Positions 56 to 25,748 are shown, numbered from the stretch's first letter. The stretch is 64,000 nt of DNA from Candidatus Omnitrophota bacterium (GCA_028717245.1 JAQUOD010000002.1:204772-268771); one strand, 5' to 3'. The notes: generated from the letters alone by a model not told the origin. Numbers and translations are program-made.

Positions 56-3000
56 ATGAAGCGTTGTGAGGCTGCTATCATGAAATTAATCATGGAACAG
101 AACGGGACTCTTTCTGATTGGGAGGTTTTTTATTATTACGGTTGGTATATGCGGATAAGGAAGAAGTCAGCAGCGGCGAGCAGATTTAGCGGTTCATCTT
201 TAAGAGGTCTCCCAAATATTGTTTTGGCGCTCGGCACAGGATTTATCGCCGCAATGCTTTTAAGAGCAAATGGCCATTCCGGTATTAATTGGTTGAATAT
301 TAGCGCTGGTTTACTATTAGCCGGATTGCCCGTTTATATCATGATAAGAGGTCTTAGAAAAATTTCCATTAACGATTTATCCCAATCCCTAAAAAAACTT
401 ACCCGCGATGATATAATAGGATTTATAATCTTGGTTGGTTACCTTATTGTATATGCTGCCATTGTTTACGCGGCATTTTGGCTTATGCAACTGACGGCTG
501 CTCCTTCTTTAGCCCCGCACTCAATGTTGCCCAATATGCCGTTTGGCCAGGCCTTACCCTTCACTATTTCAGATTTAACTGGTTTCTTCATTAGCGCCGC
601 TTTTTTGGTTGGGATGGCACGGGGTTCGATAGGCGGCGCAGGCCAGCGTAATATTATAAGGGAAAGTGGCAATGCCAAAAAGATAATGCCCGAAGACGAA
701 ATAAGGGCCTCTGTGACGAATTTATATGTATGGTTTGACATTCTTAAAGGAACGGATCCTAAGATATCAGCGGCTTTAAGTAAGATTTATTCTGCTTATC
801 AAGAATTAGATTTTAGTCAGAATAATCGGGCTAAATTAAATGAGTTAACAGAAGCAAAAGCGAGGCTTAAGGAAGGATTAGAGCAGCTCCGAGGGATTCT
901 TCTGGGGAGAGAAAATGAGCTTACAGGAGTTATGGCTAAACTACTGGAGAAACAGCGGGTAGCAAGTAAAGACGCACCAACAAGAATAGGAGAAATGAAG
1001 AGGGAGATTAAAGCAGCGCTTGCAAAACTGGAGAGCAAAAGCACTAATGCGCTTAGCCTCAATCCCTATGCATTTTCACTTATATTTTCCATTCTTGCGC
1101 CTTTTATGCCGGTTTTAGGCCCGCTTGTTAGCATTGCCGTGAACCAGATGTACTCTCTGCCGGCTTGTATATTTGTGATTGAGGCAATATTGAATAAAAC
1201 TCAAGCCAAACGCAAGCCCAAAGAAGATATGGTTAAAGAAACAGAAGATGAAAAATCCGAAAGGCTCAGGCAGGCAAAAATATATTATAAAGAAGGGCTT
1301 TATTATGCTCAGGCAGGGCTTACTGATTTCGAAAAGGGAAATGTAAAAGCAGCAAGGAGAAACTGGTTTACGGCGATACGAAACTTTAAGGAGGCAACTG
1401 ACTCAAGCTGGGAATATACCGAAGCTTATTATAATTGGGCATTAGTTTATTACAGATACTATAATACGTTTGTTAAGCAGCCATCGCCACGGGGGGTCTT
1501 CGCTAAAATTGCAGCAGCAATAAGAGGAGACGAAGAGCATAAAAAGGAAGTTTGGGAGGAATATTTATATGAGATTAAGTTTATCTTAGGATTGTTTCCA
1601 GAATTGCGGAAGAAGCTAGAGGGTAAGATTATTATACCGGATTTAGATTCAGGAGACATTTCACCGAGCCCATCTGGAGGTAATAATTCTCTAGCCCATG
1701 GTGGCGATGTTGGCAAGGCACAATTTAGCTTAGGGAGCGGTTCTGAAGCATCAGGAATAGAGTTGGTTACCGGTCGTGAACCTCGGGAGCAATATTACGG
1801 ACCAGTTCCTGACGGGGATCTATTTAGGGGCAGCACAAGAGCCAAGCATAAATTTGAGGATGGAATAACAAGAAGCAGCGGCAGAGCGCCAGGCAAGAAA
1901 ATCTATAAAAGCCAGATTATTAGAGATGCAATTAGAGATAGAATTCCTTGTTTCTTCCTGATGCTAGTGAAAAACATTGATTTTGCGGTACCGATAAAAA
2001 GGATAATCGTCCCCAGAGATATTGCGAATTTGGAATTAGAAGGGAAAACCCCTTTTGAAAAGAAAGTTATCAGGTTAAGCCATGATTTACTGAACCAACT
2101 AAAGAATCAACATAATATTGAGGTCTTGATTAAAGAAGGCGATGATTCTATTCTAGAACATGAAACTGAAGACTTTGGAATTACTTTAAACGGCGCAGAA
2201 GGAAGGTTAAGCCCGGAGAATTTTAAGGAGATCTCAAGAAAAACCGGAAGCCTTCTAGCTGGACTACATAAGGCAGGCGTAATCGCTTCGGATTCGCACC
2301 CCGCAAATTTTATCGTTAATACTGAAACGATGGAAGTAAGAAGAATAGATTTTGAGTGGGTTGACATATTTGATAAAGAGTTAGCCCGTGAGTTAACGCA
2401 AAAATATGAATTTTCCGAAGCAGAATTAAGAGGATTAGGTATCCATTCAACCAGAATACCCAGCAGTGAAATGACTAAAGAAATTCTTACTCTTATTTGG
2501 ACTGAAAAGGACAAGTCGAAAAATTTGCATAATAGTTTATTTATCTGGCCATTTGCCGGGGGGTATTTATCAGTCAAGCATGAGTTTGATGAATGGGAAG
2601 AAGACCTTGAGAGAATGCTGTATTATTTACTCTCATTTAGAGACAAGGAAGAAGGCAATTTGGGAGGCAAAGCAAATACAGAAGCCGAGCAGTATGGCAA
2701 AACAGTTCCTGAAAGTGAGCAGCCGGTAAAGGAAACAAGGCCTAATCCTGCCAGCTCAATAGAGGTGATAGAGGCAACCCCTAAATACCGCCAAGATATA
2801 ATCTCTCTCATACATAGCTCTTTCCCCGAGCTTGACAATGAAATGGAGAGGATCCTTCGGGATAATCGGGTGTTTGTGGCTTTGGTTAAAGTTAGGGAAG
2901 AATGGGAATTCGCCGGAGCGGTCCTGACCGCAATAAAGAGGGTTATCAATGAAAAAGGAGAAATTGTTCTTCCGGCTACTTATATTGATGCCTCAAAGCA

Positions 3001-6000
3001 CGAGAGTAATTTCACAGCGCAGCCCCATAGCTTTTGGTTGATTGATTTTGCTATCGCTGTTTCTCCGGAAATTAAAGTAAAAGGCATATCTGATGCTTTA
3101 ATCCAGGCTACGGATAAGTATACCGATGAGCAGGGATTAATGAGGCCAGATGCTGCCAGCCGCGCACGGGATGCAGGAAAGTTTAAAGATGCCCTTCTGC
3201 AGGAGCGGGCAAAGGCCCTTCCTGAAGCTAAAGCAAAAAACCTTTCTGGCCTTAACATAATGATACGTTACCTTATGACTACAACGCTAAACCCCAAAGG
3301 AGTGGTTAAAGATTCATTCGCAAAATATGCAGCAATGCCCAACGGTATGAGCCCGTTTTTGCTCTGGCTTAAGGAATCCAAACGCCTGGCAAGGTCAGAT
3401 GGCGTGGATGATAGCCCTTATGCCAATTTTGTTAACGTTATTTCCCCCCTCTTAGAAGAAATTGACAAACACTCCCCTAAAGACCTCGAAGGCTTCCTGA
3501 AAACTTATGATGATTTTGATTATTCCCGCCTTGCCCAGCCGGACGTGATTGAAGAATTTGGAAAACTTCTGCGTGACTTCATCAATGGTTCCTCCAGATA
3601 TGAAGACCAGATAATAGCCGGCCTGCATATGCGCCTGGGAGCCCATATCGGAAGGATAACCAAAAACAGCCTCCCCGGCCACCCCGAGACTTTAGATATG
3701 AACATCCATATGTTTTATCCAGAAAAAGTAAATGACAATATTCCACCGGCAGATAATCCGGTTTTGCCTGTACAAGGGGTGTCCCCAAATGGGACGTCCT
3801 CAGAAGCGCATGCAAGGAATATGATTCCTCCGCTTGTGTTGACTCTTTATTTTGCCAGGATGGCTGGTTTTGCTATGCCTTCTTTAGAATTATCTGCGAG
3901 CGAGATCGATCCGGTGATAGTTATACTTTTGCTTATGTTTTTATTTGTGATAAAAAAGGTAGTGGTGGAAGAGATTGATAAAAGGAGTGAAAAATTGAAT
4001 AGGGCCAGGATTGACAAGATACTCAATAGTAACGAAATAAAGGCAGATGATACAGTGGCAAAGCCCGTTATTAAAAACTATAATTATCCGGAAAGAATTA
4101 CTCCGCATAATGCTCCTATAGCAAAGGTCTTTAAAGAACCCTTGCCGCCTTCAGCCCGGTTTTATCCAAAGACAGAACCTTCATTAAGATTGATGGACTC
4201 TAAATATCAGAATATCGCAAGGGAGTTTAAAGAAGCCATTCAGAATAAACCTTTCCCAACTGAAGGTATGTTCCTTGAAATAGGCCACGGCGGGAATCTA
4301 TCTTCCCCGGGTTTTGCTATTAAATTTGGGCTTGAGCCTTGGGGCATAGATTTAGATAGGCATGCTAATGCCGATACGATAAATGATATTGTCGGACAGG
4401 CTGAAAATATCCTGCCTTTGATAAAAGATAATTCTTTTGATGTGATAGCTGTTATTGATACCTTTGGAATTATGACCAGAGAAAATAGTTTTTATAAAGC
4501 TCAACCCATAGATCCGGTATGGTTAATAATGCAAATAGCCCGGATATTGAAACCCGATGGTTATTTGGTTATCGCAGATTTTTCCGCAGATTTAGAAGAT
4601 TTGAAGTTAAAGTATGGGATGGAACTTAATAAATTAGCTGAAGGCGCAGGCCTTAAAGTTTTGAGATATCGCATTGAAGGCAGTAGGGCAATCTCTATTA
4701 TCTATAAGCCATCAGAATTATCTCCATTAGCCCCCCGCGTAGGAGCCGCTGGTTTGGAGATAGCGGAATTTAAAAAGCCGACAGAAATAGGGTTAGGTCA
4801 AAGGCCAAGTACTGCTGTTACCCTAGATGATGTTCAACTACCTTCTGTTATAGAAAAAGACCGTAAGGATGCAGCGTTAAGCAGCCGCTCAAGGATAGAA
4901 ATAGAAGAAGTGCCTATTCCTGATGCTATGGCAGAAGACGCCAGCAAGGACTCCTTTAGTTTTAAGGAATATATGGACGCTGCGTTATATAATCCTGGCT
5001 GGGGATTTTATGGCTCAGGAAGGGTGCAGTTTACGCGAGGCAAAGATTTCGAGACCTACCCTAAAATACTTTCTCCTGTATTCGGAGAGTTAGTCTGCGA
5101 ACAGGCTTTTAAGATGTGGAAAGGCATGCTGGCTGCAAAGACTATAAGCGAGGCAGAGGAATTTACAATAGTAGAATCTGGCGCAGGCGAAGCAGATTTA
5201 TCCTATGATTTATTATCCCACGCCGAAGAGTTGGCAAAATCGGATGAGCTTTGGAATATTTTCTACCGGCAGCTCGTATATATTAGTTTAGAGCGTTCGC
5301 CGAAATTAGTAAAAAGGCAGAAAGAGAAAAACGCAAAATTCAGTCCGAAATTTCGGGTTATAGAAGGGGATGCCCGCGATGTAGCTAAGCTTATCAAAAA
5401 ACCTATTAAAGGATTAATCCTTTCTAATGAACTGATGGATAATTTCGCTGTTTATAAGGTTAGATTTGAACCAGACGGCGCAACAAAGACTCCCTTAGCC
5501 ATTCCTTTAATCAGCGTTGAGCTCGCCAAGGAATTAAGCAAAAGAGGCATAATCCGAGAATTGGATTTAGCAATGAGAAACGAACAATTGAAGAAGGATT
5601 TTTATCTCCCTAACAAGAAAGGGAAACTTTATATATCTAAAAGCGATTTCTTAAAGATTAAGGCAGAATTAAGCAAGCAAGAATATAGACAGTTGGAAGA
5701 TAGCTTTGATACCCAGATAGATTTTGTTGAGGCGTATTTGGATATTAAATACTTCCCTGAATTATTCGATTATGTCCATAAGAACAGAAGGGAGCTATCT
5801 TTTGCTATAGCCAAGGAAGCAAAAGCAGTTACTGCTTATCTTAGCCCGGATGCGGTTAGGTTTATTCAGTCCGCAGCAGGAATTTTAGATAAAGGTTATA
5901 TCCTGACTATAGATTACGGAGCAAGTACGCAGGGACTCTTGAATCCAGAATACATAAAGCATCCGATAATGATGTATGGCCCTGTATCTGTACGCGATAT

Positions 6001-9000
6001 CTTCGATGCCAATCCTTATCATTTACCGGGAAAATGCGATATTACCGTAGGTGTAGATTTTACCTCTTTGGTAGAAACCGGCGAAAATGCGGGATTGAAA
6101 TTAAAATTCTATGGTGTTCAGGGGAATCTTGAGTCAGGGATAACCAATTTGTCTCATGATGAGGAATCGAAGAGCAGGATAGTAGCCCGCCGCCTTAAAA
6201 GAGAGTACCCTCAGGCGAAGGCTCCTGAAGGTTTGCAAGAGGGAATAAGAGGCCAGGTCGAAGATGACATAAGGAGTTTTAAAAAAGATTTTCTTGGTGG
6301 CAATAGCGTTAAAATGCTAATACAGCAGAAAGAAGGCACTGATGAACAGTATGAATACAAGATACCTTCCGTAGTATCTCTTGAAGAAATGAGTTTATTC
6401 GCCAGGAGAAAAATCCCGGCCAAGCAAAGGCCTTTATTCCTTGAGCCGCGGATTAACGCCGCGATATTTATCGATGATTTTTGTAATTTAGGTTTACCAG
6501 AAAAAATAGACGCAGACGTTTTAGTTAAAGCTATCCGCGCATCCGGCATATTGCTGATGCCAGATAATAAAGACAATAAAAAATTTATTAAGAAAGAACG
6601 CTTTGAACCTTACGAGTTTGCTTCAAATTCCTATCCAGCTTATCACTGGTTAGTTTTTGGAGGGCAATTGGAAGCTTGCATTGCAAATCAGGCGAGAGAG
6701 ATTATATCAGGGGTTAGCGAATGCCCTGCTAACACTAAAATGTGGATTACATTACCATTGAATGCCATCGGATGTTTTTCTGGTAGAGACGAAAGAAAGT
6801 ATGGTTTACCGAGATATTTAGCAAAGTACCTTGTAAAGGAATATAGTTCATTTGCCGAAGGCTTACGGCCAATAAAGGAACCTTATACGCAAATTGATAC
6901 TAAAGACGTAGAAATTAATTTCGGGGATTGGGCAATAGTAGAATTTGATCCATACTCTAATGCGTCGATTTTTCAAGAGAATATAGGGTTAACCATATTA
7001 GAGAACGGCCGAGAACTGTGTTGTATTAAACCTGATGGCCGAAGAATGGTAGTACTTAATTTTATCTCTAAAAAACCAGAAAATGTATTCAGTTTATTGC
7101 AACAGAGTAGCGCAATCAAACAAGCCGGACAAAAAGAGAGCATATCAGGAAATAACACCCTGCCGCAAGGCACGATTAACAAAAAAACCCTTAACCCTGC
7201 CTTAGGCCCCGGAACATATGATCCTCGAGATCTGGCAACTCTTCAGGGGCAAAACAGTAATTCTGGAAAAACAGGGTCAGATTCAATTTTTTCCTATATT
7301 CTCGCCCATGATTTTATGAGCCCTAATAAAGTGGGGTATATTCAGGCAATAAGAGCTATGTTACCGGTAAAGAATCAAAGGAGGAGGTGCCTTTATATTG
7401 CCTTAGGCGGAGATTATTCAACCAGCCAAATGGTATCGCAGGCCCTAGAAACTATTTGTGTGGATAGGCTTCCTTTTGAGCCTTTAATAACACTATCTAA
7501 AGAAGAGGCGGATTTATATAAAGCCGTGTATATCAAAGACAGGTATTATGCGAATTTTGCTTCTTCAGTCCAATCAGTTGAAGGCGCAGTATTAAGGCGC
7601 GTAGGCGCTAAAGAATATTTTCTTTGGGAATTGGAAATGATGGGAGCCCAAGATATAGAAATAAGTTTTGATACCGCCCTTAATGCCAATAAGATTAGTT
7701 TTATCCTCCCGGGCGAATCGATGCAAAAAAGCATAATTTATTTTAGTTTTGACGCCAGGAATATAGAAGCCTACCCTCAGGCTCTGCTCAACCTTATAAA
7801 AGAAGGATTAGATTCTTTTATTTTTAAAGCCAGCGACGGCGTGGTTTTACCTCTTCAGATCAAAGACATAATTACCAACTCCTTTGATCCGGAAGCTATG
7901 CTGTTTCTGGATAGCGAAGCTTCATTTAGCCACACTTATCTTGAAGAGATAGATGAGGCAAAAATGGGGCAAATCAGGAATTTTGAAAAAATGGGTTATG
8001 CCTTTGGATATGAAAAAGTTCGTTTATTAAGGCCTAAAAAGCCCGAAATCCCCTCCCTCCCCGCAGGTGGGATAGAGGTTGAGAAAAGAAAGACACGGCA
8101 GCATCATTCGAATGACATATATCAGGAACCGTCCCCGCTGCCGTCTCTGCTAGCTAAGAATAGAATAGAGGTTTACCTAGATGATATTGCCCCCAGATTT
8201 TTTAAATTAATGAGAGCTGAATTTTCAGATGATAACAGGCTTTGTCTTATTTCTTCCAGAATTACGGGTTTAGTCCTGGCAGATAAATTTGGGATTCCTA
8301 TAGATAACAAGAGCGCCAATAGGATGGAGGTAAGGTTATGCCCTTATTTTGATGATGGCGGGAAACGTTACCATCAGATGCTTATAATTTATCGCAATAA
8401 TAACCCATGGCTTTTTGTTTATCCTGTCCTGGGATTGTTCTATAGCGGCTTAGAAGGCAGGATAATCTGCAGGGATTATCAGAAATTAAGCGAGTACAAT
8501 TTTATGGACCAGGGAAGGACAAGCTGGGTTCTCGATGAGCAGTTACAACAAAGAATAGAAAGGGTAGCCCAAGAGATTGTAGGGGATGGAAATTTAGGCT
8601 ATGGCAGCATAGCGACAACACAGCTGGCACCTTTTGAGAAGATATCCAGGGCATTAAAAATAGAAAAACTGCTTAATGAAAACTTACGGCAGGAAGGATT
8701 AAATACTCCCATTAAACATGAAGGAACAAAGGGGCTTTTCTACGAATCGGATATTTCTGATGTGGTCAAGGCCTGTCAGGTAATAGGCCTTGAGGGTAAA
8801 AGAGGCATTGATTTAGGCGCAGGCGTTGGCCACGCAGTGTTTGCTATGGCAGTAGCCGGCCTTCGGGGAGTAGGCATAGAATGGGAAAACCATTTAATTG
8901 GTATTGGTAATGGCCTCTTAGATAACAAAGAATTGAAGAAACTCGTTGATACCAGCCGCGTTGACTTAAGGCAGGGCGATTTTATGCAGGAAGATTTAAG

Positions 9001-12000
9001 CCAATACGACATAATTTACTATTATTGGAATGGCGCAGGTTATGGCAATGAAAATAAAGCCCAGGATGCGCTTATGCAAAAGATTAAGCAAGAAATGAGG
9101 CCGGATACCCTGTTGATTATTTACAGAGGGCTTGATACGCTTTCCCTCCCGGGATTTGAAAGAAAAGATTACCCCGGAATTCCCGAGACGGTGAGAGTAT
9201 TTAGGAAAGCCGAGGATATACGCAGCGATTTAGATAGCCCTGATGCAGAAATTAGAAGCAAAGCCATAAGTACTTTGCTGCGCTCAGACGAATACACGGA
9301 TAAAGAAAAGACACTTTTATTATTAAAAAGAGTTATGCAGGACGATGATAAATCAGTACGCACAGAAGCAAGAAGGGCGCTTACTATTCTCTGGTATGTA
9401 ATTGAAGGAAGGCCGAATAATAATTTTGCTGAAGTCCTGCAAGATGTGGGGCAGGGGCTTGCAAAACCAGAACGCGAAACTTTATTAGATATTCTGGTAA
9501 ATTCATTCCTTAACCGGGAAAGCCGCTATGCGCTTAACCGCTTTTGTTTGGATACATTTATGAAAGAGAATCCTAAAGTAAAGATTAATATCGACGAACG
9601 AATTCTGGAAGCAGACAATGTTGCCCCATATCTTATAACCATTGCCGGGCAGCTTTCCGGAATAAATCAGGAGAGCCTGAATTTAGAAATTATATTTTTG
9701 GATAACGTAAATGCAATTGAGAACAGGATTATGGAATCAGAGATTACCTTGCGTAAATATGGGGAGAACGGGCCAAGGGAGATGTTGATTAATATAGCCG
9801 CATTTAAAGAAAAAGCAGGCTATTCTTCGCAGGAGAACGTTATTTTCGCCAAAAAGATTTCCGAGGTATTGAATCAGTGCATTAATAAAGATAGCTGTGA
9901 TTTCGCTCCGATTGACAATACCAAAGCGGCATTGGAGGGTTTTGTGCCTTTGGATGAAAGCTTTCTCTGGAAGATAAGCAATTTATATTGGCAGTTAATG
10001 GGGAAGGATTCTTTTAAAGACCCGTACGCAGATACTTCGTTTTTCCCTGAATTACCCACGCACTTGAGAAAGGTACCCAACGGTTTATATGTTTATCACA
10101 GTTTTGCTTCTGCCTGCGCGGATAAATTCTCTAAGTATCTTTGCGAATTAGAAAATAGAGGCGATTTACCCGGGAGGATTATTGTTCAAGAATGGGGCGT
10201 GGGGAATGCCGATTTTCCGGAAAAGTTCCTGGGCGCCCTAAAACGGCTAAGCGCAGAAAAAGTAAAACAGCAGGGAGGGACGGATTTTTACGGGAGGGTA
10301 ACTTATGTAATAGGCGATATATCCCTTAAGATGTTAGAGAATATACGGCAGGCAGAATGGTACCCCCAGCATAAAGAGAAGATAGAATTTTCCGTAATGG
10401 ATGCCGTAAACCCTCCCCAGGCTTATCGGGGCAGGACTCTATTATTGATAAATAGCTATCTCTATTGCGTATTGCCGGCAAAAGTGATTGCGAAGAAAGA
10501 GGGCCGTTTTTACGAGATGTGCGTAAGGGCGTATCTGAATAAAGACATACGTATTAAAACCCGGGAGGGAAAGGACGTTTCAGCCGAAGAATTCACAGAG
10601 ATGCTGGTAAAAAATGATATACAGGCGCTTTCAAAACTCAACCCGTCTTTCTGGTATGCGTTGAATTATGAAGAGGTATATAAAGAATTTGATCCTCGGA
10701 GTAATAGCTGGGGTGATTACATAGCATGGATAACGCAAGGTAAAGATAATTGCCGGTTCATAATTAATAATCAGGCGTTAGAGAGCTTAACAAAGTCGCT
10801 TGATTTATTAGATGAAAAAAGAGGGATGATTTGGATATTTGAATTGACTTCGCCGGATGCATTAAATAACCCCCTTGCCGGCCCGATGAGTTTTGGCCCT
10901 ACGCTGGCTACACCTGTAAATACATCCTTATTGGAATACGCAATTAATAAAAACCGCGGTTGGAAAATCTCGGTTTCTCCTTCAACTATGTTTTTGCCGG
11001 AAGATACGAAGCGCGCCCAAAAATATACCTATATTGAAGTAGAAAAGAACAAATCCCCGCATATAGATACAAAAAATACGGCCTTATGTTTCAATCCCTT
11101 CATATTTTCGCTTCTTATCCCTTCCCTTATGCCCCTTATTATATTTTTGGGCGTGGCGGTATTTCCCTCTGCTCCTTTCATACCCGCGTGGCTGCCTGTA
11201 ATCAAAACAATGGTTACTAGCGCTGTAGTAAAGATTCAAAATATAGTTAGTAAGATAAAGGATAGATTCATACAAATAAAGCCAGTCCTTTATTTAGATA
11301 TATTAATATTCTTTTTTACAATCGGCATATTTATTCCTCTCTATTTCTTCCGAGATAAGATAGGAGAATTAGGAGCCTATGGCTATTTTGTGGCGTTCTG
11401 TATCTCAATACTCACTAACCTGACGGTATTTTTCCCTGTTCCAGGCATTGTAGCAACAGGTGCTTTAGCAACTGTGTTTAACCCTTTTTGGATTGGTATC
11501 GTGGTTGGCATAGGGGCGACTATCGGACAGATTACAAGTTATGGTTTTGGTTATAGCGGTAAATCCATAATTAATGGAAATCGTATCTACCAAAAACTGA
11601 TGAATTGGATACAGGGTTTGCTAATATACAAAAAAATAAATAACTGGGTAGAGAAACGGCCAAACCTGTCTATTTTTATTAGTTACTTTTTTCCTATTCC
11701 GGGTGTATCTGATACTGTCGGAGCAATAGCCGGTAGCGCAAAGTACCCTTTTTGGAAATACTTTATCTTTTGTATGTTAGGCAATATCCCTAAACATATC
11801 TTTTATGCTTATTTTAGCGCCTGGGGATTAAATTTATTTTTCCCGGATATTTTTAAATTGGGTATCTCCGGAAATCCTTTAATCTCTTTACCTCTTCTGG
11901 CAATAGCAAACTTACCTATAATGGGATATGATGATTTTGAAGGAGAAGAAGGAGAAAACCACAGAAAGAGGCCAAAGAATAAAAAAAGAAGAGAGGAAGA

Positions 12001-14530
12001 CGATATCGAAGCCCGGCTTAAGAATGTGGTGAGATTTACAGATGTGCAAGAAGCTGTTTCTAAAGCGCCAGTTAAAGAAAGATCTGTATCTGCGCAGGCA
12101 GTGGTTGTAGAGAATTCAGCAGAGGGAAGAAAAATTACTCCCAAGCAAGCCAAACCGGTTACAAAAATCAAGGCCACGGGAGTTGATAGGTTAAGGCAGA
12201 TTTCCGTTTTGCTTGAAAGAGGATTGGCGTCCGATGGGTTTACGGGATTTCAAAGAGAGGCTTATGAGATTAGCGAAGAAATGGCAGCAGAGCAAGGCAA
12301 TGTTGCCTTAAAACAACTCTACGATTTAATTACAAGGCCGGATTTACACCAAGGCGTAAACAGGTGGATAATCGGAGGAATAAGTAATTATTTTAAGCGT
12401 CCGAGCGTGAGCTTAAAGGATATTATGCTTTTACTTGCCGACGAATTTTGGCAAGATAACGCGGGAACAGGAAATATGATAACCGGCGTAATGATAACGG
12501 CGGTTAAAAGGCGATTACCCGAATATAAGGGCGCTGCAGGGATCGTCGAATTACACGTCCTGCTCCACGATAAGAATATTCGTAAGTATAAAGGCCTGCG
12601 CGCCTTGTTGTACAATCAAATCAGGGGCGATTTAAATAATATAATTTCCCTCAACGAATTAATTGAATTATATTTAAGCCAGAGATGGTTCGAGGGCGTG
12701 GGCAGGAATATGGTATTTCCCAGAATAGAAGAATTGATCGGTAAAGGCGCGTTAGCGCGGGTTGATTTTTTTAAGCTGGCTAACTGGTATATGGACCCTT
12801 TTCTTGATTCGGAAAGAAATGAAAAATCATTTTGTGAAGAACTGAATAGAAGGATTAGGGGCTTAGATTTAAATACAATAGATTCATACCTCGTTGATTC
12901 CGGCATCCCTAGAGAAGTAAAAGAATTAATACGGAAAATAAGAGGTGATGAACTTAAGGGTTTCTACGAAGAAAAAGAAAGGGAAAAGAAAGAGGCAGAT
13001 AGAAAACAAAAGATAGGGGGTCATTTGGCTTGCGTAGAGAGATTAAGCGCGGAGGGTAAATTAGAGGAATCGTCGGCAGAATTACGGGTACTACTTGAAG
13101 TTGAGCCTGAAGATGAAGGAGCGTTGTTAGAGTTTATGCTGCAACGGTGCAGCAACGCACAAGTCTTAAATAATTATATCCGTATCAGGAAAGATTTTAT
13201 AATAGATAAAATTCTGGAGGCCAAAGAAGGCAGGCCAGATTATTTCTATTGTTTGCTTGAAGTCATGCAAAAAGTTTACGGCCGGCAGGATATAGACAAA
13301 AAGGTCGCAGAGGAATTTAAAGCTCAGGCGCAAGAAATAATAAAATCCATAATTGACAGGGACATCAAAAAAATAAACCATATCTTTACGCTTCCTGCCA
13401 GCAGAGAGGTAAAACTTGGCATGCGCGATGAGATTCTGGGAGGCCTTTTTCTAAAGACGGATGATTTAGTAAAACGATTCCTGGATACCTTATCTGAAAA
13501 TGAAATCCCTGTGTTTCTGGAGTCAATGTCAGGAGCCGTCGCTTTTTATGATTTATGCGCGCGCAAGGATATAAGTAATGCCATAAGGGCGCAGCTTAGG
13601 CAGATAGTAGATTCAGCCATTGATTTTATATACTTTAACCGTTCGTTTGACTTGCCGCGCAATACTATGCTGTTTATTAAATGCCTGCTTAGTAAGGAAG
13701 AGTTTTCTCAGACTGTATTCAGCGTTCAGGCAGAGTTGATGCCTTATTTACAAGAAGACAATCAGGATAAACTGATGGGATTTGTGATGGATAAAAATAT
13801 TTCTTATAAGGAAAAGAAGGCAATTTTATTCCGGTTAGCGATGTTGTGGACAGAGTTTTTGAATAAAGACGGAAGCCCAGGGCAGATAGCTAATCTGTGC
13901 GATAATGCTGACCCGCTGGTTAGGGCGTATCTTTATTATGCCTTGTCTTTGATACGCAGCCCTAAATATGACGAGGCGAAGGCGATACAACAAGAGCTTG
14001 CGCGTAAAATAGCGGGTCTGGTTAAGGCAGGACAGATAAATAGAAAAGCGTTGATGGATATTCTTTATGAACTTCAGCCGGTAGATAGTCGTAACAGGTT
14101 GTTCTTAATCTACTGTATAGTGGCATCTTTAGCGGTTGAGAGAAAGATTTCCGCGTTCATTCCCAAGGAAAATCCGGGCGGTAAGATGTTAACAAAAGAT
14201 AGCAGTAAGTTGATAAAAGAAGCGTTGGCCGAAGCAGCAGAGAGCGATTTTGTAAAGAGCGATAGCTGGCATCAAGAATTGATTGAAGACGCGTTATGGT
14301 TGCTTGAGCAGGATGATAATTTAAAGAAACATGCCCTGAGGAATATAATTGAATTGATTACAGCTGCGGGGAGCTCAAGTAATATTTGGGCACTCTATAG
14401 GCGTAAGATTGACGCTTTGAAGAAGAAAAGAAAGGGCACTCTTGGCAATGTAGTTACTATTCCGGGCAAACAGGAACCGTTTACAAGGCAACAGCGTTCG
14501 CCTGGATGGGATGGTTTTATTTATAAGTAG
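56..14530 (+). CDS. giant multidomain membrane protein (4,824 aa): N-terminal TM bundle and coiled coil, two atypical kinase-like modules, Methyltransf_11-like SAM MTase, two MidA/NDUFAF7-like MTase modules, DOT1-like MTase motif, HEAT-like repeats, embedded DedA/VTT-like multi-TM block, helical C-terminal third
   Basis: Single uninterrupted 14.5-kb frame in an AT-rich genome; the other five frames show only ORFs under 160 aa. ATG at 56, but this frame has no stop back to base 2, so the true start may lie upstream of the window. Motifs were read directly from the translation (see findings). Confidence 0.85.
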   Translation: MKRCEAAIMKLIMEQNGTLSDWEVFYYYGWYMRIRKKSAAASRFSGSSLRGLPNIVLALGTGFIAAMLLRANGHSGINWLNISAGLLLAGLPVYIMIRGLRKISINDLSQSLKKLTRDDIIGFIILVGYLIVYAAIVYAAFWLMQLTAAPSLAPHSMLPNMPFGQALPFTISDLTGFFISAAFLVGMARGSIGGAGQRNIIRESGNAKKIMPEDEIRASVTNLYVWFDILKGTDPKISAALSKIYSAYQELDFSQNNRAKLNELTEAKARLKEGLEQLRGILLGRENELTGVMAKLLEKQRVASKDAPTRIGEMKREIKAALAKLESKSTNALSLNPYAFSLIFSILAPFMPVLGPLVSIAVNQMYSLPACIFVIEAILNKTQAKRKPKEDMVKETEDEKSERLRQAKIYYKEGLYYAQAGLTDFEKGNVKAARRNWFTAIRNFKEATDSSWEYTEAYYNWALVYYRYYNTFVKQPSPRGVFAKIAAAIRGDEEHKKEVWEEYLYEIKFILGLFPELRKKLEGKIIIPDLDSGDISPSPSGGNNSLAHGGDVGKAQFSLGSGSEASGIELVTGREPREQYYGPVPDGDLFRGSTRAKHKFEDGITRSSGRAPGKKIYKSQIIRDAIRDRIPCFFLMLVKNIDFAVPIKRIIVPRDIANLELEGKTPFEKKVIRLSHDLLNQLKNQHNIEVLIKEGDDSILEHETEDFGITLNGAEGRLSPENFKEISRKTGSLLAGLHKAGVIASDSHPANFIVNTETMEVRRIDFEWVDIFDKELARELTQKYEFSEAELRGLGIHSTRIPSSEMTKEILTLIWTEKDKSKNLHNSLFIWPFAGGYLSVKHEFDEWEEDLERMLYYLLSFRDKEEGNLGGKANTEAEQYGKTVPESEQPVKETRPNPASSIEVIEATPKYRQDIISLIHSSFPELDNEMERILRDNRVFVALVKVREEWEFAGAVLTAIKRVINEKGEIVLPATYIDASKHESNFTAQPHSFWLIDFAIAVSPEIKVKGISDALIQATDKYTDEQGLMRPDAASRARDAGKFKDALLQERAKALPEAKAKNLSGLNIMIRYLMTTTLNPKGVVKDSFAKYAAMPNGMSPFLLWLKESKRLARSDGVDDSPYANFVNVISPLLEEIDKHSPKDLEGFLKTYDDFDYSRLAQPDVIEEFGKLLRDFINGSSRYEDQIIAGLHMRLGAHIGRITKNSLPGHPETLDMNIHMFYPEKVNDNIPPADNPVLPVQGVSPNGTSSEAHARNMIPPLVLTLYFARMAGFAMPSLELSASEIDPVIVILLLMFLFVIKKVVVEEIDKRSEKLNRARIDKILNSNEIKADDTVAKPVIKNYNYPERITPHNAPIAKVFKEPLPPSARFYPKTEPSLRLMDSKYQNIAREFKEAIQNKPFPTEGMFLEIGHGGNLSSPGFAIKFGLEPWGIDLDRHANADTINDIVGQAENILPLIKDNSFDVIAVIDTFGIMTRENSFYKAQPIDPVWLIMQIARILKPDGYLVIADFSADLEDLKLKYGMELNKLAEGAGLKVLRYRIEGSRAISIIYKPSELSPLAPRVGAAGLEIAEFKKPTEIGLGQRPSTAVTLDDVQLPSVIEKDRKDAALSSRSRIEIEEVPIPDAMAEDASKDSFSFKEYMDAALYNPGWGFYGSGRVQFTRGKDFETYPKILSPVFGELVCEQAFKMWKGMLAAKTISEAEEFTIVESGAGEADLSYDLLSHAEELAKSDELWNIFYRQLVYISLERSPKLVKRQKEKNAKFSPKFRVIEGDARDVAKLIKKPIKGLILSNELMDNFAVYKVRFEPDGATKTPLAIPLISVELAKELSKRGIIRELDLAMRNEQLKKDFYLPNKKGKLYISKSDFLKIKAELSKQEYRQLEDSFDTQIDFVEAYLDIKYFPELFDYVHKNRRELSFAIAKEAKAVTAYLSPDAVRFIQSAAGILDKGYILTIDYGASTQGLLNPEYIKHPIMMYGPVSVRDIFDANPYHLPGKCDITVGVDFTSLVETGENAGLKLKFYGVQGNLESGITNLSHDEESKSRIVARRLKREYPQAKAPEGLQEGIRGQVEDDIRSFKKDFLGGNSVKMLIQQKEGTDEQYEYKIPSVVSLEEMSLFARRKIPAKQRPLFLEPRINAAIFIDDFCNLGLPEKIDADVLVKAIRASGILLMPDNKDNKKFIKKERFEPYEFASNSYPAYHWLVFGGQLEACIANQAREIISGVSECPANTKMWITLPLNAIGCFSGRDERKYGLPRYLAKYLVKEYSSFAEGLRPIKEPYTQIDTKDVEINFGDWAIVEFDPYSNASIFQENIGLTILENGRELCCIKPDGRRMVVLNFISKKPENVFSLLQQSSAIKQAGQKESISGNNTLPQGTINKKTLNPALGPGTYDPRDLATLQGQNSNSGKTGSDSIFSYILAHDFMSPNKVGYIQAIRAMLPVKNQRRRCLYIALGGDYSTSQMVSQALETICVDRLPFEPLITLSKEEADLYKAVYIKDRYYANFASSVQSVEGAVLRRVGAKEYFLWELEMMGAQDIEISFDTALNANKISFILPGESMQKSIIYFSFDARNIEAYPQALLNLIKEGLDSFIFKASDGVVLPLQIKDIITNSFDPEAMLFLDSEASFSHTYLEEIDEAKMGQIRNFEKMGYAFGYEKVRLLRPKKPEIPSLPAGGIEVEKRKTRQHHSNDIYQEPSPLPSLLAKNRIEVYLDDIAPRFFKLMRAEFSDDNRLCLISSRITGLVLADKFGIPIDNKSANRMEVRLCPYFDDGGKRYHQMLIIYRNNNPWLFVYPVLGLFYSGLEGRIICRDYQKLSEYNFMDQGRTSWVLDEQLQQRIERVAQEIVGDGNLGYGSIATTQLAPFEKISRALKIEKLLNENLRQEGLNTPIKHEGTKGLFYESDISDVVKACQVIGLEGKRGIDLGAGVGHAVFAMAVAGLRGVGIEWENHLIGIGNGLLDNKELKKLVDTSRVDLRQGDFMQEDLSQYDIIYYYWNGAGYGNENKAQDALMQKIKQEMRPDTLLIIYRGLDTLSLPGFERKDYPGIPETVRVFRKAEDIRSDLDSPDAEIRSKAISTLLRSDEYTDKEKTLLLLKRVMQDDDKSVRTEARRALTILWYVIEGRPNNNFAEVLQDVGQGLAKPERETLLDILVNSFLNRESRYALNRFCLDTFMKENPKVKINIDERILEADNVAPYLITIAGQLSGINQESLNLEIIFLDNVNAIENRIMESEITLRKYGENGPREMLINIAAFKEKAGYSSQENVIFAKKISEVLNQCINKDSCDFAPIDNTKAALEGFVPLDESFLWKISNLYWQLMGKDSFKDPYADTSFFPELPTHLRKVPNGLYVYHSFASACADKFSKYLCELENRGDLPGRIIVQEWGVGNADFPEKFLGALKRLSAEKVKQQGGTDFYGRVTYVIGDISLKMLENIRQAEWYPQHKEKIEFSVMDAVNPPQAYRGRTLLLINSYLYCVLPAKVIAKKEGRFYEMCVRAYLNKDIRIKTREGKDVSAEEFTEMLVKNDIQALSKLNPSFWYALNYEEVYKEFDPRSNSWGDYIAWITQGKDNCRFIINNQALESLTKSLDLLDEKRGMIWIFELTSPDALNNPLAGPMSFGPTLATPVNTSLLEYAINKNRGWKISVSPSTMFLPEDTKRAQKYTYIEVEKNKSPHIDTKNTALCFNPFIFSLLIPSLMPLIIFLGVAVFPSAPFIPAWLPVIKTMVTSAVVKIQNIVSKIKDRFIQIKPVLYLDILIFFFTIGIFIPLYFFRDKIGELGAYGYFVAFCISILTNLTVFFPVPGIVATGALATVFNPFWIGIVVGIGATIGQITSYGFGYSGKSIINGNRIYQKLMNWIQGLLIYKKINNWVEKRPNLSIFISYFFPIPGVSDTVGAIAGSAKYPFWKYFIFCMLGNIPKHIFYAYFSAWGLNLFFPDIFKLGISGNPLISLPLLAIANLPIMGYDDFEGEEGENHRKRPKNKKRREEDDIEARLKNVVRFTDVQEAVSKAPVKERSVSAQAVVVENSAEGRKITPKQAKPVTKIKATGVDRLRQISVLLERGLASDGFTGFQREAYEISEEMAAEQGNVALKQLYDLITRPDLHQGVNRWIIGGISNYFKRPSVSLKDIMLLLADEFWQDNAGTGNMITGVMITAVKRRLPEYKGAAGIVELHVLLHDKNIRKYKGLRALLYNQIRGDLNNIISLNELIELYLSQRWFEGVGRNMVFPRIEELIGKGALARVDFFKLANWYMDPFLDSERNEKSFCEELNRRIRGLDLNTIDSYLVDSGIPREVKELIRKIRGDELKGFYEEKEREKKEADRKQKIGGHLACVERLSAEGKLEESSAELRVLLEVEPEDEGALLEFMLQRCSNAQVLNNYIRIRKDFIIDKILEAKEGRPDYFYCLLEVMQKVYGRQDIDKKVAEEFKAQAQEIIKSIIDRDIKKINHIFTLPASREVKLGMRDEILGGLFLKTDDLVKRFLDTLSENEIPVFLESMSGAVAFYDLCARKDISNAIRAQLRQIVDSAIDFIYFNRSFDLPRNTMLFIKCLLSKEEFSQTVFSVQAELMPYLQEDNQDKLMGFVMDKNISYKEKKAILFRLAMLWTEFLNKDGSPGQIANLCDNADPLVRAYLYYALSLIRSPKYDEAKAIQQELARKIAGLVKAGQINRKALMDILYELQPVDSRNRLFLIYCIVASLAVERKISAFIPKENPGGKMLTKDSSKLIKEALAEAAESDFVKSDSWHQELIEDALWLLEQDDNLKKHALRNIIELITAAGSSSNIWALYRRKIDALKKKRKGTLGNVVTIPGKQEPFTRQQRSPGWDGFIYK

Positions 14531-14604: not shown

Positions 14605-15294
14605 GTGAAAGATAGAAGACGCAGTATCCGCTGGCAGATAAATCAACAGGCAAAGGTGAAATTAGAGGGCGCCTATGCCTTTATCCAATGTTTTATTAAG
14701 GATATCAATTTTACGGGCCTGCAGATTTCTCTCCGTATGAAGTTGCCGGAAGATACATTTTTAAAGTTTAACCTGGTTTTATCTGAAGAGGCTACTTTAG
14801 ATATAGAGGCATGGGTAGTTTGGCATAAAAGGAGAGATGATTTTAATGTCTACGGCCTTCGTTTTACTCAGATAAATGAAGAAAACAGGGGGGAAATCTA
14901 TAAATTTCTCTATAAATATTTCCCTGAGGAGGTGGTTAAAAGATGGGGACAAAAAACAGCAGTTAATACAGGAGGCGAGACTATGCAAGACAAGAGGATT
15001 TTTGAGAGGTTTCCCGCGAGTTTACCTTTAAGATTCATCGACTTAAGCGTAAATAAAGAGAGCCAGGCGCAGACACAGGATATCAGCGCTAAAGGGATTG
15101 GGCTAATGACAGATAAAGAGCTTAGCCCGCAAACGCCTTTAGAGATGTGGCTGGATATCCCTGACCACCGCGAGCCGCTTTATACCCGGGGAGAAGTGGC
15201 CTGGTCTAAGCTATTGGGGCCCGATAAATACAGGGTAGGAGTTAATTTAGAAAGGGCGGACTTAATGGGTATAGCGCGGATATTAAGGTCATAA
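14605..15294 (+). CDS. tandem PilZ-domain protein (c-di-GMP receptor-like)
   Basis: Two repeats of the PilZ signature: RRRSIRW ... DINFTGLQI, and KRIFERF ... DISAKGIGL. GTG start, with AAAAAGG upstream. Confidence 0.7.
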   Translation: MKDRRRSIRWQINQQAKVKLEGAYAFIQCFIKDINFTGLQISLRMKLPEDTFLKFNLVLSEEATLDIEAWVVWHKRRDDFNVYGLRFTQINEENRGEIYKFLYKYFPEEVVKRWGQKTAVNTGGETMQDKRIFERFPASLPLRFIDLSVNKESQAQTQDISAKGIGLMTDKELSPQTPLEMWLDIPDHREPLYTRGEVAWSKLLGPDKYRVGVNLERADLMGIARILRS

Positions 15295-23233: not shown

Positions 23234-23262
23234 AAACAAAAAATAAAGAGGAGGTGTGGGAG

Positions 23263-24402
23263 ATGAAGAAGTTATTAGTAGTATTATTGGCGTTGGCGCT
23301 CTTGGTTCCTGCTTGCATTTACGCAGAAGAGCAACTTAAAGAATTTGTGGTTTACAGCGATAAAAGTTCCAGGGATAACCATTATATTCCCGCAGGCTGG
23401 ATAGGCGACTATGGCGACATCAAGATAAACGACCAGGCCGCGGCCAATCCGCATTCGGGCAATACCTGTATCCAGTTCGTTTATACGGCCAAGAAATCTC
23501 AAGGCCAGGGTTGGGCAGGCATTTACTGGCAGAATCCCGCGAACAACTGGGGAGGCAAAAAGGGCGGTTTTGATTTGACCGGGATGACTAAGCTCACCTT
23601 TTGGGCGCGCGGGGAAAAGGGCGGTGAGATCATCCAGAAGTTTGTCGTAGGCGGCATCAAAGGTACATATCCGGATTCAACAGTCGTGGAAATGGGCCCT
23701 GTTGAGCTTACGGATACCTGGACAGAATACACCATCAATCTGGCCGGCCGCGACTTATCTTATCTTAACGGCGGTTTCAGCTGGGTGACTACCGCGGATT
23801 TAAACCCTAATGGCATGACCTTCTACCTTGATGATATAAAATTTTCGGCAGATACCTCTATGAAACCCGAAGCTAGGAAACAGGATAATATGCCTTTCTA
23901 TGTCTACGCCGACAGGGGTTCCATAAATAATCACTTCGTCCCTTCTGGATGGGTAGGCGATTATGGCGACTTAAGATACGATAATGCCTCTAAAGAAGAC
24001 CCTTACTTAGGCGATACCTGCGTAAAGATAATTTATTCAGGCAAGGCCACTCAGGGCGCGCGCTGGGCAGGTATATACTGGCAGAATCCCGCCAACAACT
24101 GGGGGACAGTGGATGCAGGTTATGACCTTTCCCGCGCTACCAAGCTTACCTTTTGGGCACGCGGAGAAAAAGGCGGCGAGAGGATAGAAGAATTTAAGTT
24201 AGGCGGTATAATGGGAGAGTTTTCCGATTCAGATACTGCTGTGATCGGGCCTGTGATCCTGGATAAAACCTGGACCCAATATACCATTGACTTAAAGGGC
24301 AAGGATATGTCTTACATCATCGGCGGTTTCTGCTGGTCAACAAATGTTGACGTTAACCCCGAAGGTGCTACTTTCTATTTAGACGAGATTAAGTACGAAT
24401 AA
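23263..24402 (+). CDS. secreted protein made of two ~185-aa internal repeats (beta-sandwich CBM-like modules)
   Basis: Signal peptide. Each repeat carries GWxGDYGD ... WAGIYWQNPANNWG ... KLTFWARGEKGG ... FYLD(D/E)IK(F/Y). ATG 23263 with RBS AAGAGGAGG is preferred over the GTG at 23254. Confidence 0.5.
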   Translation: MKKLLVVLLALALLVPACIYAEEQLKEFVVYSDKSSRDNHYIPAGWIGDYGDIKINDQAAANPHSGNTCIQFVYTAKKSQGQGWAGIYWQNPANNWGGKKGGFDLTGMTKLTFWARGEKGGEIIQKFVVGGIKGTYPDSTVVEMGPVELTDTWTEYTINLAGRDLSYLNGGFSWVTTADLNPNGMTFYLDDIKFSADTSMKPEARKQDNMPFYVYADRGSINNHFVPSGWVGDYGDLRYDNASKEDPYLGDTCVKIIYSGKATQGARWAGIYWQNPANNWGTVDAGYDLSRATKLTFWARGEKGGERIEEFKLGGIMGEFSDSDTAVIGPVILDKTWTQYTIDLKGKDMSYIIGGFCWSTNVDVNPEGATFYLDEIKYE

Positions 24403-24407
24403 AACCC

Positions 24408-24484
24408 TAGGGACGGTTCTCAAGCCAAAGCAAGAAGTGTCCCCATAAGGGGACACTTCTCCGATTGGACTAAGAACCGTCCCT
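24408..24484. repeat. REP family B doublet (B1): ~77-bp long palindrome
   Basis: TAGGGACGGTTCTCAAGCCAAAGCAAGAAGTGTCCCC-ATAA-GGGGACACTTCTCCGATTGGACTAAGAACCGTCCCT; arms of about 36 bp. Confidence 0.8.
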
Positions 24485-24488
24485 CTAT

Positions 24489-25748
24489 ATGCAGTATGCA
24501 GTGAAGAAATTAAACGCTACATTCATTATTGCCGTATTTTTTTTGGTCTTAACGGCTATATCCTGTGCTCCGGCTAATAGGCCGAGCGTCTATATTCAAA
24601 AACTCAAAAATAGCCGTTACCAGTTAATGGTAGAGCGTAAGCCCTATGTGGTCAGAGGCGTCTGTTATAATCCTATCCCCATCGGAGCGAACCACGAATA
24701 CGATTGGTGGTCAGACTCCAATAAACCTTGGCTTATAGACGGAAAATTAATGCAGGAGATGGGCGCGAATACTGTCAGGCTCTATCAGGTCCATGAGAAT
24801 GCCGAAGAGGTCAAGACGGTCATCCGCGATTTATACGAACGTTACGGTATCCGCACTATTCTCGGGCATTGGCTGGGTTTTTGGGAATATCCCTGCCCGC
24901 TTTACGCGGATAAAGGCTTCCAGGATAGGATAAAGGGAGAGGTCCTGGCTATGGTTTCTACATACAAGGATGAGCCGGGCCTGCTCTTATGGATTCTGGG
25001 TAATGAAAATAATTATTCCTGTTGGGGCAGGGTTAATCCCTGGTCGGATGATGGAATAGACAAGGAGCCTGACCCGCAGAAAAAATGCCTCATGCGCGCC
25101 GATATTTATTATTCTTTTGTGAACGAGTTGGCAAAAGAGATACACAAGATAGACCCAGAGCATCCGGTGGCGCTGGGTAACGGAGAATTAATAGGTTTGG
25201 ATATTGCCAACAAAGCATGCCCGGATATAGACCTGGTTGCCTGCATTATTTACCGGGGCAAGACCTTTGGTAATCTTTTCCAGTCTTTGAAGTTATCCTT
25301 TGATAAGCCGATATTGTTATCGGAGATCGGCGCAGACAGTTACAATGCCCACAAAAATGTAGAGGACCAGAACATGCAGGCCTTCTTCTTAGAATCGCAG
25401 TGGCGCCAGATTTATGAAAACTTAGCCCGGAATAAAAAAGGCGCGGGCAATTGTTTAGGAGGCGCAATCTTTGAATGGACAGACGAGTGGTGGAAACATA
25501 ATGAAGGCGACCCCGAAGGCTGGAAGATGCATAATACCGAAGCCGGCTGGTCCAGCGGCAGTTATTATTTTGATATACAGGCGCCCAATAATATGAATAT
25601 GAACGAAGAGTATTTCGGTATTGTGGCCCTCTCGCAGGACTTAGAGGGCGGCATCGATAAGCGTATCCCCAAAAAAAGCTATTATGTCATCAGGGAGTTC
25701 TGGAAGAATCCCGTTGAGAAGCCAAAAGCCAAAAATAAAAAGCCGTAA
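24489..25748 (+). CDS. secreted clan GH-A glycoside hydrolase-like protein (paralog of the 20800 gene catalytic region)
   Basis: LLWILGNENNYS and LLSEIGADS motifs, with AIFEWTDEWWKHNEG matching VVFEWLDEWWKAYE in the paralog. Confidence 0.55.
   Translation: MQYAVKKLNATFIIAVFFLVLTAISCAPANRPSVYIQKLKNSRYQLMVERKPYVVRGVCYNPIPIGANHEYDWWSDSNKPWLIDGKLMQEMGANTVRLYQVHENAEEVKTVIRDLYERYGIRTILGHWLGFWEYPCPLYADKGFQDRIKGEVLAMVSTYKDEPGLLLWILGNENNYSCWGRVNPWSDDGIDKEPDPQKKCLMRADIYYSFVNELAKEIHKIDPEHPVALGNGELIGLDIANKACPDIDLVACIIYRGKTFGNLFQSLKLSFDKPILLSEIGADSYNAHKNVEDQNMQAFFLESQWRQIYENLARNKKGAGNCLGGAIFEWTDEWWKHNEGDPEGWKMHNTEAGWSSGSYYFDIQAPNNMNMNEEYFGIVALSQDLEGGIDKRIPKKSYYVIREFWKNPVEKPKAKNKKP

Follow-up and report, generated by a model that had tools for sequence, protein, structure and literature searches.

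Two methyltransferase modules, one of a long-form MidA/NDUFAF7-like type, in a giant membrane protein of Candidatus Omnitrophota

Introduction

What do two methyltransferase-like stretches do in the middle of a giant bacterial membrane protein, and do they belong together? The question is raised by a 64,000-nucleotide (nt) stretch of DNA from a Candidatus Omnitrophota bacterium (GCA_028717245.1, JAQUOD010000002.1:204772-268771), which we refer to at its full length as the window. An earlier note had claimed that nt 4260-6100, within a giant open reading frame (ORF), encode two adjacent S-adenosylmethionine (SAM)-dependent methyltransferase modules, the first resembling Methyltransf_11 and the second resembling the MidA/NDUFAF7 family. 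We find that one membrane protein carries two separate, intact-looking SAM-methyltransferase modules in nt 4235-6370. The reference point for the second is the symmetric dimethylation of Arg-85 of NDUFS2 by NDUFAF7/MidA; protein arginine is the target in the only solid biochemistry on the MidA family (PMC3829151; PMC9006661).

Two methyltransferase modules in one protein

The giant ORF and the features of its two modules are as follows.

nt 56..14530, + strand: giant ORF of 4,824 amino acids (aa), a multi-pass, multi-module membrane protein (from the ORF list and translation)
nt 4235..4714, + strand: Methyltransf_11-type class I module (MT11 module), aa ~1394-1553 (Pfam match at aa 1407-1506, nt 4274-4573)
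nt 4271-4297, + strand: FLEIGHGGN, aa 1406-1414, motif I of the MT11 module
nt 4436-4468, + strand: FDVIAVIDTFG, in the MT11 module
nt 4547-4582, + strand: LKPDGYLVIADF, a motif of the MT11 module
nt 4715..4912, + strand: charged, Pro/Ser-containing linker, aa ~1554-1619 (from the sequence)
nt 4913..6370, + strand: long-form MidA/NDUFAF7-like module (COG1565, PF02636), aa ~1620-2105 (extent from homologues and model)
nt 4970-5014, + strand: YMDAALYNPGWGFYG, in the MidA-like module
nt 5039-5092, + strand: GKDFETYPKILSPVFGEL, in the MidA-like module
nt 5162-5215, + strand: FTIVESGAGEADLSYDLL, in the MidA-like module
nt 5174..5194, + strand: motif I of the MidA-like module, E1707-S-G1709-A-G1711-E-A1713 (from column conservation)
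nt 5417-5461, + strand: ILSNELMDNFAVYKV, in the MidA-like module
nt 5426..5440, + strand: N1791-E1792-L-M-D1795 (NE..D), after strand 4 (from column conservation)
nt 5516..5716, + strand: helical insertion, aa ~1821-1887, the hallmark of the long form (from spacing and model; boundaries approximate)
nt 5906-5920, + strand: TIDYG, in the MidA-like module
nt 5912..5920, + strand: D1953-Y-G1955 (DYG), followed by D1995/T1997 and Q2022 (from column conservation)

Every motif that the earlier note had quoted occurs exactly once in the giant protein and lies where it was placed, and Pfam recognized both stretches as domains. Since the motifs are in place and the Pfam scores exceed their cut-offs, both the observation and the two family assignments are confirmed. 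Two details of the earlier description required correction. The modules are consecutive, as claimed, but they do not abut; a linker of ~70 aa without any family match separates them, and the first residues of our structure model, from aa 1605 on, have low confidence. The proposed end at nt 6100 falls short of the MidA-like module, which homologues and the structure model extend to nt ~6370.

The first module matched PF08241 with 27.9 bits, above the gathering cut-off of 21.2 (E 3.9e-6); searched in isolation, the segment scored 26.9 bits. PF13847 (Methyltransf_31) scored 24.6 bits for the MT11 module alone and 41.5 bits when two stretches of the giant protein were summed, and PF13489 (Methyltransf_23) scored 21.7 bits on the same stretch. 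Motif I, LEIGHGGN, reads G-x-G-G-N with the last glycine shifted, and an acidic residue (D1432, in GID) follows eighteen residues on. The best sequence match in the PDB was 1vlm (E 0.07), and comparison with a bona fide MT11 domain from the relative P0002, introduced below, gave 31% identity over 70 aa (E 0.002). A metagenome scan returned no close orthologues of the MT11 plus MidA stretch.

The second module is a member of the MidA/NDUFAF7 superfamily (PF02636, COG1565). PF02636 (Methyltransf_28) matched aa 1679-2016 with 99.3 bits (E 3.2e-28) against a cut-off of 23.3. The match extends over positions 1-245 of the 249 in the profile, and the isolated segment scored 101.8 bits. When the PDB was searched with phmmer, only MidA-family structures were found: 4f3n/4g67 (Burkholderia COG1565, 3.8e-10), 5ztz (Dictyostelium MidA, 6.5e-5), and 1zkd (1.7e-3). 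A profile built from the module and 32 relatives sharpened these matches (4f3n 8.7e-34, 5ztz 6.8e-18, 1zkd 1.9e-14), with nothing else below 1e-3. An AlphaFold model of aa 1605-2110 made with an alignment had a mean predicted local distance difference test score (pLDDT) of 89.6 and a predicted template modelling (TM) score of 0.91; it was used instead of a single-sequence prediction of the module, for which pLDDT was 33.6. Ranks 1-6 of a Foldseek search of the PDB with this model were 4g67, 4f3n, 5zu0, 1zkd (two chains), and 5ztz, with E from 1e-16 to 1e-14. These six are all MidA-family proteins, with TM scores on the target of 0.60-0.73, and generic class I methyltransferases came next at E >=1.7e-6. 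By both sequence and fold, the resemblance to NDUFAF7/MidA structures is specific; the fold of this family combines a Rossmann methyltransferase core with N- and C-terminal elements of its own.

Conserved positions were identified in an alignment of the window module with 70 long-form relatives (defined below) and 32 canonical MidA proteins. In long-form and canonical proteins, respectively, the motif I glutamate is conserved in 99% and 100%, the first glycine in 100% and 100%, the second in 100% and 94%, and the third in 93% and 100%. The corresponding values for NE..D are 90% and 100% for N, 96% and 100% for E, and 97% and 100% for D. The window module retains E1707, G1709, G1711, E1746, D1772-A1773, N1791, E1792, D1795, D1953-Y-G1955, D1995, T1997, and Q2022. 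The N-terminal signatures M..AL..P..G.Y and DF.T.P...FG are present as well.

A long-form MidA-like subfamily

We searched 1.84 billion cluster representatives exhaustively with HMMER, using aa 1391-2560 as the query, and obtained 2,630 relatives, of which 103 had E values below 1e-30. The best-scoring stretches all fell on aa ~1605-2105 and were 30-42% identical across ~410-490 residues. When aa 1391-2130 were used in a word-indexed search, nothing was returned at E <=1e-5, a null that reflects the limits of its prefilter, since the exhaustive search found the 2,630 relatives.

The closest relatives differ from canonical MidA in spacing. The distance from NE..D to DYG is 162 aa in the window module and has a median of 164 (148-221) in the 70 long-form relatives; in the 32 canonical MidA proteins the median is 85 (76-95), and the two ranges do not overlap. 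In the structure model the insertion is mostly helical (module residues ~217-283). A subfamily profile scored long-form proteins at 359-533 bits and canonical MidA proteins at 61-228 bits, the latter over about one third of the query. At a clustering level of 50% identity, the subfamily comprises at least 103 clusters.

We scanned one genome per species with an alignment of five sequences as the query. The closest loci were in Omnitrophota metagenome-assembled genomes (MAGs) at 43, 40, 36, 35, and 32% identity. Bryobacteraceae/Terriglobia came next with 32-35%, together with a MAG from Elusimicrobia at 30%. Canonical MidA genes, among them those of cyanobacteria and Flavobacterium, appeared only after these. 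In public records, long-form proteins are labelled "SAM-dependent MidA family methyltransferase" or [quoted passage not shown], and we found no paper describing the subfamily. The assignment to MidA thus stands at the level of the superfamily but not as canonical MidA: judged by alignment and spacing, the module belongs to a distinct and apparently undescribed long-form subfamily.

Stand-alone and other non-giant long-form proteins are ~450-1,260 aa long. For the stand-alone genes, no gene neighbourhood is conserved among contigs of Bryobacteraceae, Terriglobia, and others, so that no pathway is indicated; the neighbours include a capsule-type polysaccharide locus, FtsZ/FtsA, an amidohydrolase, a tannase, and an FkbH-like gene. 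One member, P0151 (998 aa, L001 8001-10997), is encoded inside an envelope polysaccharide or capsule-type locus, next to CapC, a Mur-ligase-domain gene (CapB-like), OmpA/DUF4398, glycosyltransferases, Acyl_transf_3-SGNH, and NeuB.

The modules as mosaic parts

Is the pair of modules a fixed unit? Five other Omnitrophota frames with the MidA-like module were examined, one of 5,379 aa and four of at least 1,934, 4,029, 1,027, and 6,099 aa. These giants resemble the window protein in the MidA-like module only. Their other domains are weak GNAT, HATPase_c, helix-turn-helix repeats, and HEAT, and Pfam detected no class I methyltransferase beside the MidA-like module in any of them. Among 43 multidomain relatives (663-2,713 aa), all of which contain PF02636, a second class I methyltransferase was found by Pfam scans in 3-5, which still makes it the commonest partner domain; an iterative hidden Markov model search for second methyltransferase domains did not expand.

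The closest relative, the partial Omnitrophota protein P0002 (MDO8489726.1), has a different arrangement. Its order is Methyltransf_25, MidA-like, Methyltransf_11, followed by a region with 43% identity to window aa 2703-2824. The P0002 domain nearest to the MT11 module of the window follows the MidA-like module, whereas in the window it precedes it. The rarity of a second methyltransferase, the differing order in P0002, and the differing content of the giants argue that the modules are shuffled parts of a mosaic, and the MT11/MidA pairing is not a fixed unit.

Topology and other domains of the giant protein

Because the reading frame is open from nt 1 up to the ATG at nt 56, with no in-frame stop, the start of the giant ORF may lie before the window. 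The ATG is a plausible start; the 55 nt before it are AT-rich and end in a Shine-Dalgarno-like GAAGAG. An exact-match search with the protein from six candidate start codons found no record in the public protein collection.

Hydropathy (Kyte-Doolittle, 19-residue window) peaks at aa 51-185 (four peaks), 342-375 (two), 1286-1304, and 3682-3823, the last of these in the area of a VTT/DedA domain. The protein has multiple membrane spans with long soluble multi-enzyme regions between them. The span that precedes the methyltransferase modules is the following.

nt 3911..3967, + strand: hydrophobic segment aa 1286-1304 (PVIVILLLMFLFVIKKVVV), Kyte-Doolittle 2.74 over a 19-residue window

This is the final span ahead of a soluble region of ~2,380 aa (aa 1305-3680) that holds both modules, a third stretch of methyltransferase-like sequence, and repeats of the HEAT type. 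Basic residues follow the span. A candidate second span at aa 1262-1283 is marginal, with a mean hydropathy of about 1.4 (computed by hand). If aa 1262-1283 pairs with the span at aa 1286-1304, the methyltransferase region would be cytoplasmic. This placement is favoured by the basic residues, the need of the methyltransferases for SAM, the need of a kinase-like module for ATP, and a 2026 preprint in which transmembrane-only long Omnitrophota proteins with PF08241/HATPase/GNAT content are read as membrane-anchored and cytoplasmic (10.64898/2026.06.07.730766).

The third class I methyltransferase-like stretch (nt 8795-9115, aa ~2914-3020) has a motif I, IDLGAGVGHAV, followed by GVGIEWE and QGDF. 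Its Pfam matches are sub-threshold (Methyltransf_25 21.8 bits, Methyltransf_31 20.6, DOT1 14.5). A duplication of the MT11 module was ruled out as its origin, as the first and third modules share no significant similarity. Just past it are HEAT-like repeats (nt 9230-9382, aa 3059-3109; HEAT_2 at 18-20 bits, sub-threshold); in the relatives P0003 and P0188, a MidA-like module occurs together with strong HEAT arrays (155.8 bits). A suspected second MidA-like module at aa 3200-3700 ("IIVQEWGVGNADF") was likewise rejected for lack of significant similarity. No Pfam or PDB match was found for aa 3261-3700 and no PDB sequence match for aa 2131-2880. Besides the MidA-like module, aa 2703-2825 (nt 8162-8530) form the only part with strong similarity elsewhere, matching aa 1225-1347 of P0002 at 43% identity (E 3e-30); this part has no Pfam or PDB match.

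Two further domains lie outside the methyltransferase region. Near the C-terminal third is a VTT/DedA membrane domain (PF09335; nt 11441-11818, aa 3796-3921) that scored 48.3 bits against a cut-off of 33.9 and weakly matches the undecaprenyl-phosphate transporter UptA. The combination of a lipid-flipping-type domain with methyltransferases in one protein is an unusual fusion. The kinase-like module is a weak signature (nt 2189-2425, aa ~712-790; HPANFIV...RRIDFEW) for which all models (Bud32, Pkinase, WaaY, ABC1, lanthionine-synthetase kinase) were sub-threshold.

Proposed function and alternatives

[quoted passage not shown] Both modules would bind SAM and act as catalysts, which we consider fairly likely because the SAM-contact positions are kept and the MidA-like module alone is conserved across fast-evolving giants. 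They would work within the ~2,380-aa soluble stretch between membrane spans, together with the third, weaker methyltransferase-like module and the HEAT repeats. More tentatively, and by analogy with the only characterized family members, mitochondrial NDUFAF7/MidA, the MidA-like module may N-methylate a side chain, either in a partner protein or in the giant itself, at the cytoplasmic membrane face. Independently of it, the MT11 module would act on a substrate of its own.

Several observations weigh against this reading. For the MT11 module, the profile score from sequence comparison is modest. None of the window ORFs that were scanned for families, a scan that left many ORFs unscanned, encodes a NuoD/NDUFS2-type substrate or another link to complex I. 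Of the SAM-binding positions, E1707, G1709, G1711, E1746, and D1772 are kept, but the third motif I glycine (Gly in 93% of long-form and 100% of canonical proteins) is Ala-1713. Lys-1811 stands in place of a glutamate, located after the NE..D strand, that is present in 32/32 canonical MidA proteins and in 49% of the long form. The canonical GT...H after DYG (G/T 94%, H 88% in canonical proteins) is absent from the window module and from the long-form subfamily. The topology is ambiguous, since it hinges on the marginal segment at aa 1262-1283. Finally, a share of long-form relatives carries export-type leaders, as described below.

The sequence differences bear on substrate. Given Lys-1811, the missing GT...H, and the extra subdomain, arginine specificity cannot be transferred with confidence. 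The MidA-like module might instead methylate something other than protein, for instance the head group of a lipid, a small metabolite, or nucleic acid, with arginine methylation confined to the mitochondrial/alphaproteobacterial branch. The extra helical subdomain could form a different pocket, the protein is membrane-anchored and contains a lipid-transport-type domain (DedA/VTT), and, according to a preliminary report, Wolbachia MidA methylates DNA when expressed in E. coli (PMC12455994). We consider this alternative unlikely: nothing speaks positively for a non-protein substrate, the solid biochemistry of the family concerns protein arginine, and the neighbourhoods of stand-alone members point to no pathway.

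Somewhat less likely still is that the long-form module works outside the cytoplasm, in the periplasm, at the cell surface, or in prey or host, and methylates envelope or foreign targets. This possibility arises from the N-termini of the subfamily. A strongly hydrophobic leader was found in 31 of 87 non-giant long-form relatives whose N-terminal leader has >=25 aa, and in none of 35 canonical MidA proteins, a hint of an extracytoplasmic location for the family. The leader test was a crude hydropathy measure (a 12-residue stretch in leaders of >=25 aa) and not SignalP, and the leader call is thus a heuristic. In all 31 the hydrophobic stretch lies in the first ~50 residues, in 29 of them within the first ~30, and it usually follows basic residues; examples are MHLLRPRTLRSLFLIPLLIAAQLLA-ADR and MALRPVFVLATLACLVAVTAPAAP. 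Relatives with leaders include P0016, P0021, P0025, P0039, P0061, P0075, P0008, P0019, P0024, and P0027. Many of the leaders resemble classical signal peptides, and if the resemblance holds, part of the subfamily may be exported or N-terminally anchored. An export-type leader is odd for a SAM-dependent enzyme.

For the giant itself, the region from aa 1305 would lie on the outer side if aa 1262-1283 is not a span. Most detected domains of Omnitrophota giants have been predicted to be extracellular, although these predictions were flagged as unreliable (West-Roberts et al. 2023, 10.1101/2023.11.21.568195), and an external role would fit the predatory or parasitic lifestyle proposed for Omnitrophota. 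Against this, extracytoplasmic SAM is not known, three SAM-type modules and the HEAT repeats share the same soluble stretch, and the basic residues after aa 1286-1304 favour the inside. We also regard as improbable a broader proposal, in which the long-form module represents an undescribed envelope-associated branch of NDUFAF7 with exported stand-alone members, was captured repeatedly in Omnitrophota giants, and acts outside the cytoplasm of the producer, on prey, host, or envelope, with a specificity unlike that for the complex I arginine.

The alternative that one of the modules, or both, is a relic without activity, acting only as a scaffold for structure or binding, is quite improbable. 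For it, each module has a deviating motif I (GHGGN in the MT11 module, GAGEA in the MidA-like module), the MT11 score of 27.9 bits is modest, and the giant proteins evolve so fast that nothing is alignable outside the module. Yet the MidA-like module keeps nearly all positions that are invariant in the family, and its 35-43% identity across genomes, in the sole such part of the giants, argues for selection on function. A chance match of motifs rather than real domains is refuted by the PF02636 E value of 3e-28, the 2,630 relatives, and the MidA-matching fold model.

For the window, then, the result is a sound and routine domain annotation in an already described class of mosaic Omnitrophota membrane giants. 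Its novelty is modest and lies in a long-form subfamily with an insertion, the recurrence of this subfamily in unrelated giants, and its leader-bearing stand-alone members. PF02636 or MidA is mentioned neither in the main texts of the two Omnitrophota giant studies cited here nor in one supplement. Almost no function has been assigned to the MidA/NDUFAF7 family outside mitochondria, and a long-form branch is now delimited in Omnitrophota, Bryobacteraceae/Terriglobia, and Elusimicrobia by a defined insertion and altered conserved residues. As the single recognizable piece among unalignable giants, the MidA-like module offers a practical handle for studying giant-protein function.

Other genes in the window

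The MnmG protein encoded in the window is 100% identical to MDD4980059.1 and the PilZ protein to MDD4980042.1, both from a Candidatus Omnitrophica/Omnitrophota MAG, and the closest relatives of the MidA-like module are likewise from Omnitrophota. ORFs of 632 aa near giant genes elsewhere (L003, L013) were considered as evidence of synteny with the window; this was ruled out, as they are unrelated to the window MnmG. The gene content is otherwise ordinary and includes PilZ, sugar/phosphate ABC transporters, MFS, a GH2-like hydrolase, ROK and LacI regulators, a PhoB/PhoR-like pair, NrdJ, MnmG, GlnA, MalQ, and GdhA.

The PilZ gene, of the cyclic di-GMP receptor type (nt 14605-15294, + strand; PF07238, 85 bits over two stretches), begins 75 nt past the giant stop codon and may be co-transcribed with the giant gene. 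At nt 58410-59804 lies a gene for a beta-CASP metallo-beta-lactamase RNase. The best NCBIfam match of its product, "type VII CRISPR-associated Cas14", reached 424.6 bits against a cut-off of 800, and a match to aCPSF1 reached 302 bits, below the cut-off of 580; it is probably a generic beta-CASP nuclease. Two adjoining ORFs of 382 and 419 aa (nt 23254-25748), downstream of the GH2-like gene, had no Pfam match at E <=1e-3.

Comparison with known systems

We compared the giant protein and its modules with three known systems. In the MT11 module, a putative motif I, a candidate acidic residue after strand 2, a DNSFD-type strand 4, and an LKPGG-type motif follow the order found in generic Methyltransf_11 class I enzymes (PF08241, e.g. 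1vlm). The window module differs in having GHGGN rather than GxGxG as motif I, and it is very divergent, with no orthologue to indicate a substrate.

NDUFAF7/MidA proteins (5ztz/5zu0 from Dictyostelium, 4f3n/4g67 from Burkholderia, 1zkd from Rhodopseudomonas) have the same fold as the second module and the same motif order: F..YM..AL..P..GYY, DF.T.P...FG, E.G.G.G (with Ala for the third Gly in the window module), Y..E.S, NE..D, DYG, D.T..V.F, and Q. Canonical members are soluble stand-alone proteins of ~350-430 aa, whereas the window module is embedded in a 4,824-aa membrane protein. It is also longer, by ~80 mostly helical aa between NE..D and DYG and by ~15 aa between motif I and NE, and it lacks GT...H and has Lys at the canonical invariant Glu.

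The giants of Omnitrophota (10.1101/2023.11.21.568195; 10.64898/2026.06.07.730766, "Module 1" with PF08241/HATPase_c/GNAT/HAD) come from the same phylum as the window protein. At 4,824 aa, the latter is shorter than the published thresholds of 10,000 aa (2026 preprint) and 30,000 aa (West-Roberts), and Pfam did not find in it the SecA-DEAD, peptidase C39, and dockerin hallmarks of the published giants. What the two have in common is a plan in which spans separate soluble regions with unrelated enzyme domains, including PF08241, HEAT, and kinase-like domains, combined with very fast sequence turnover and recurring domain types; PF08241 is documented as common in mosaic Omnitrophota giants (10.64898/2026.06.07.730766). 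In its predicted construction, the window protein resembles the mosaic Omnitrophota giants at a length below their published size definitions.

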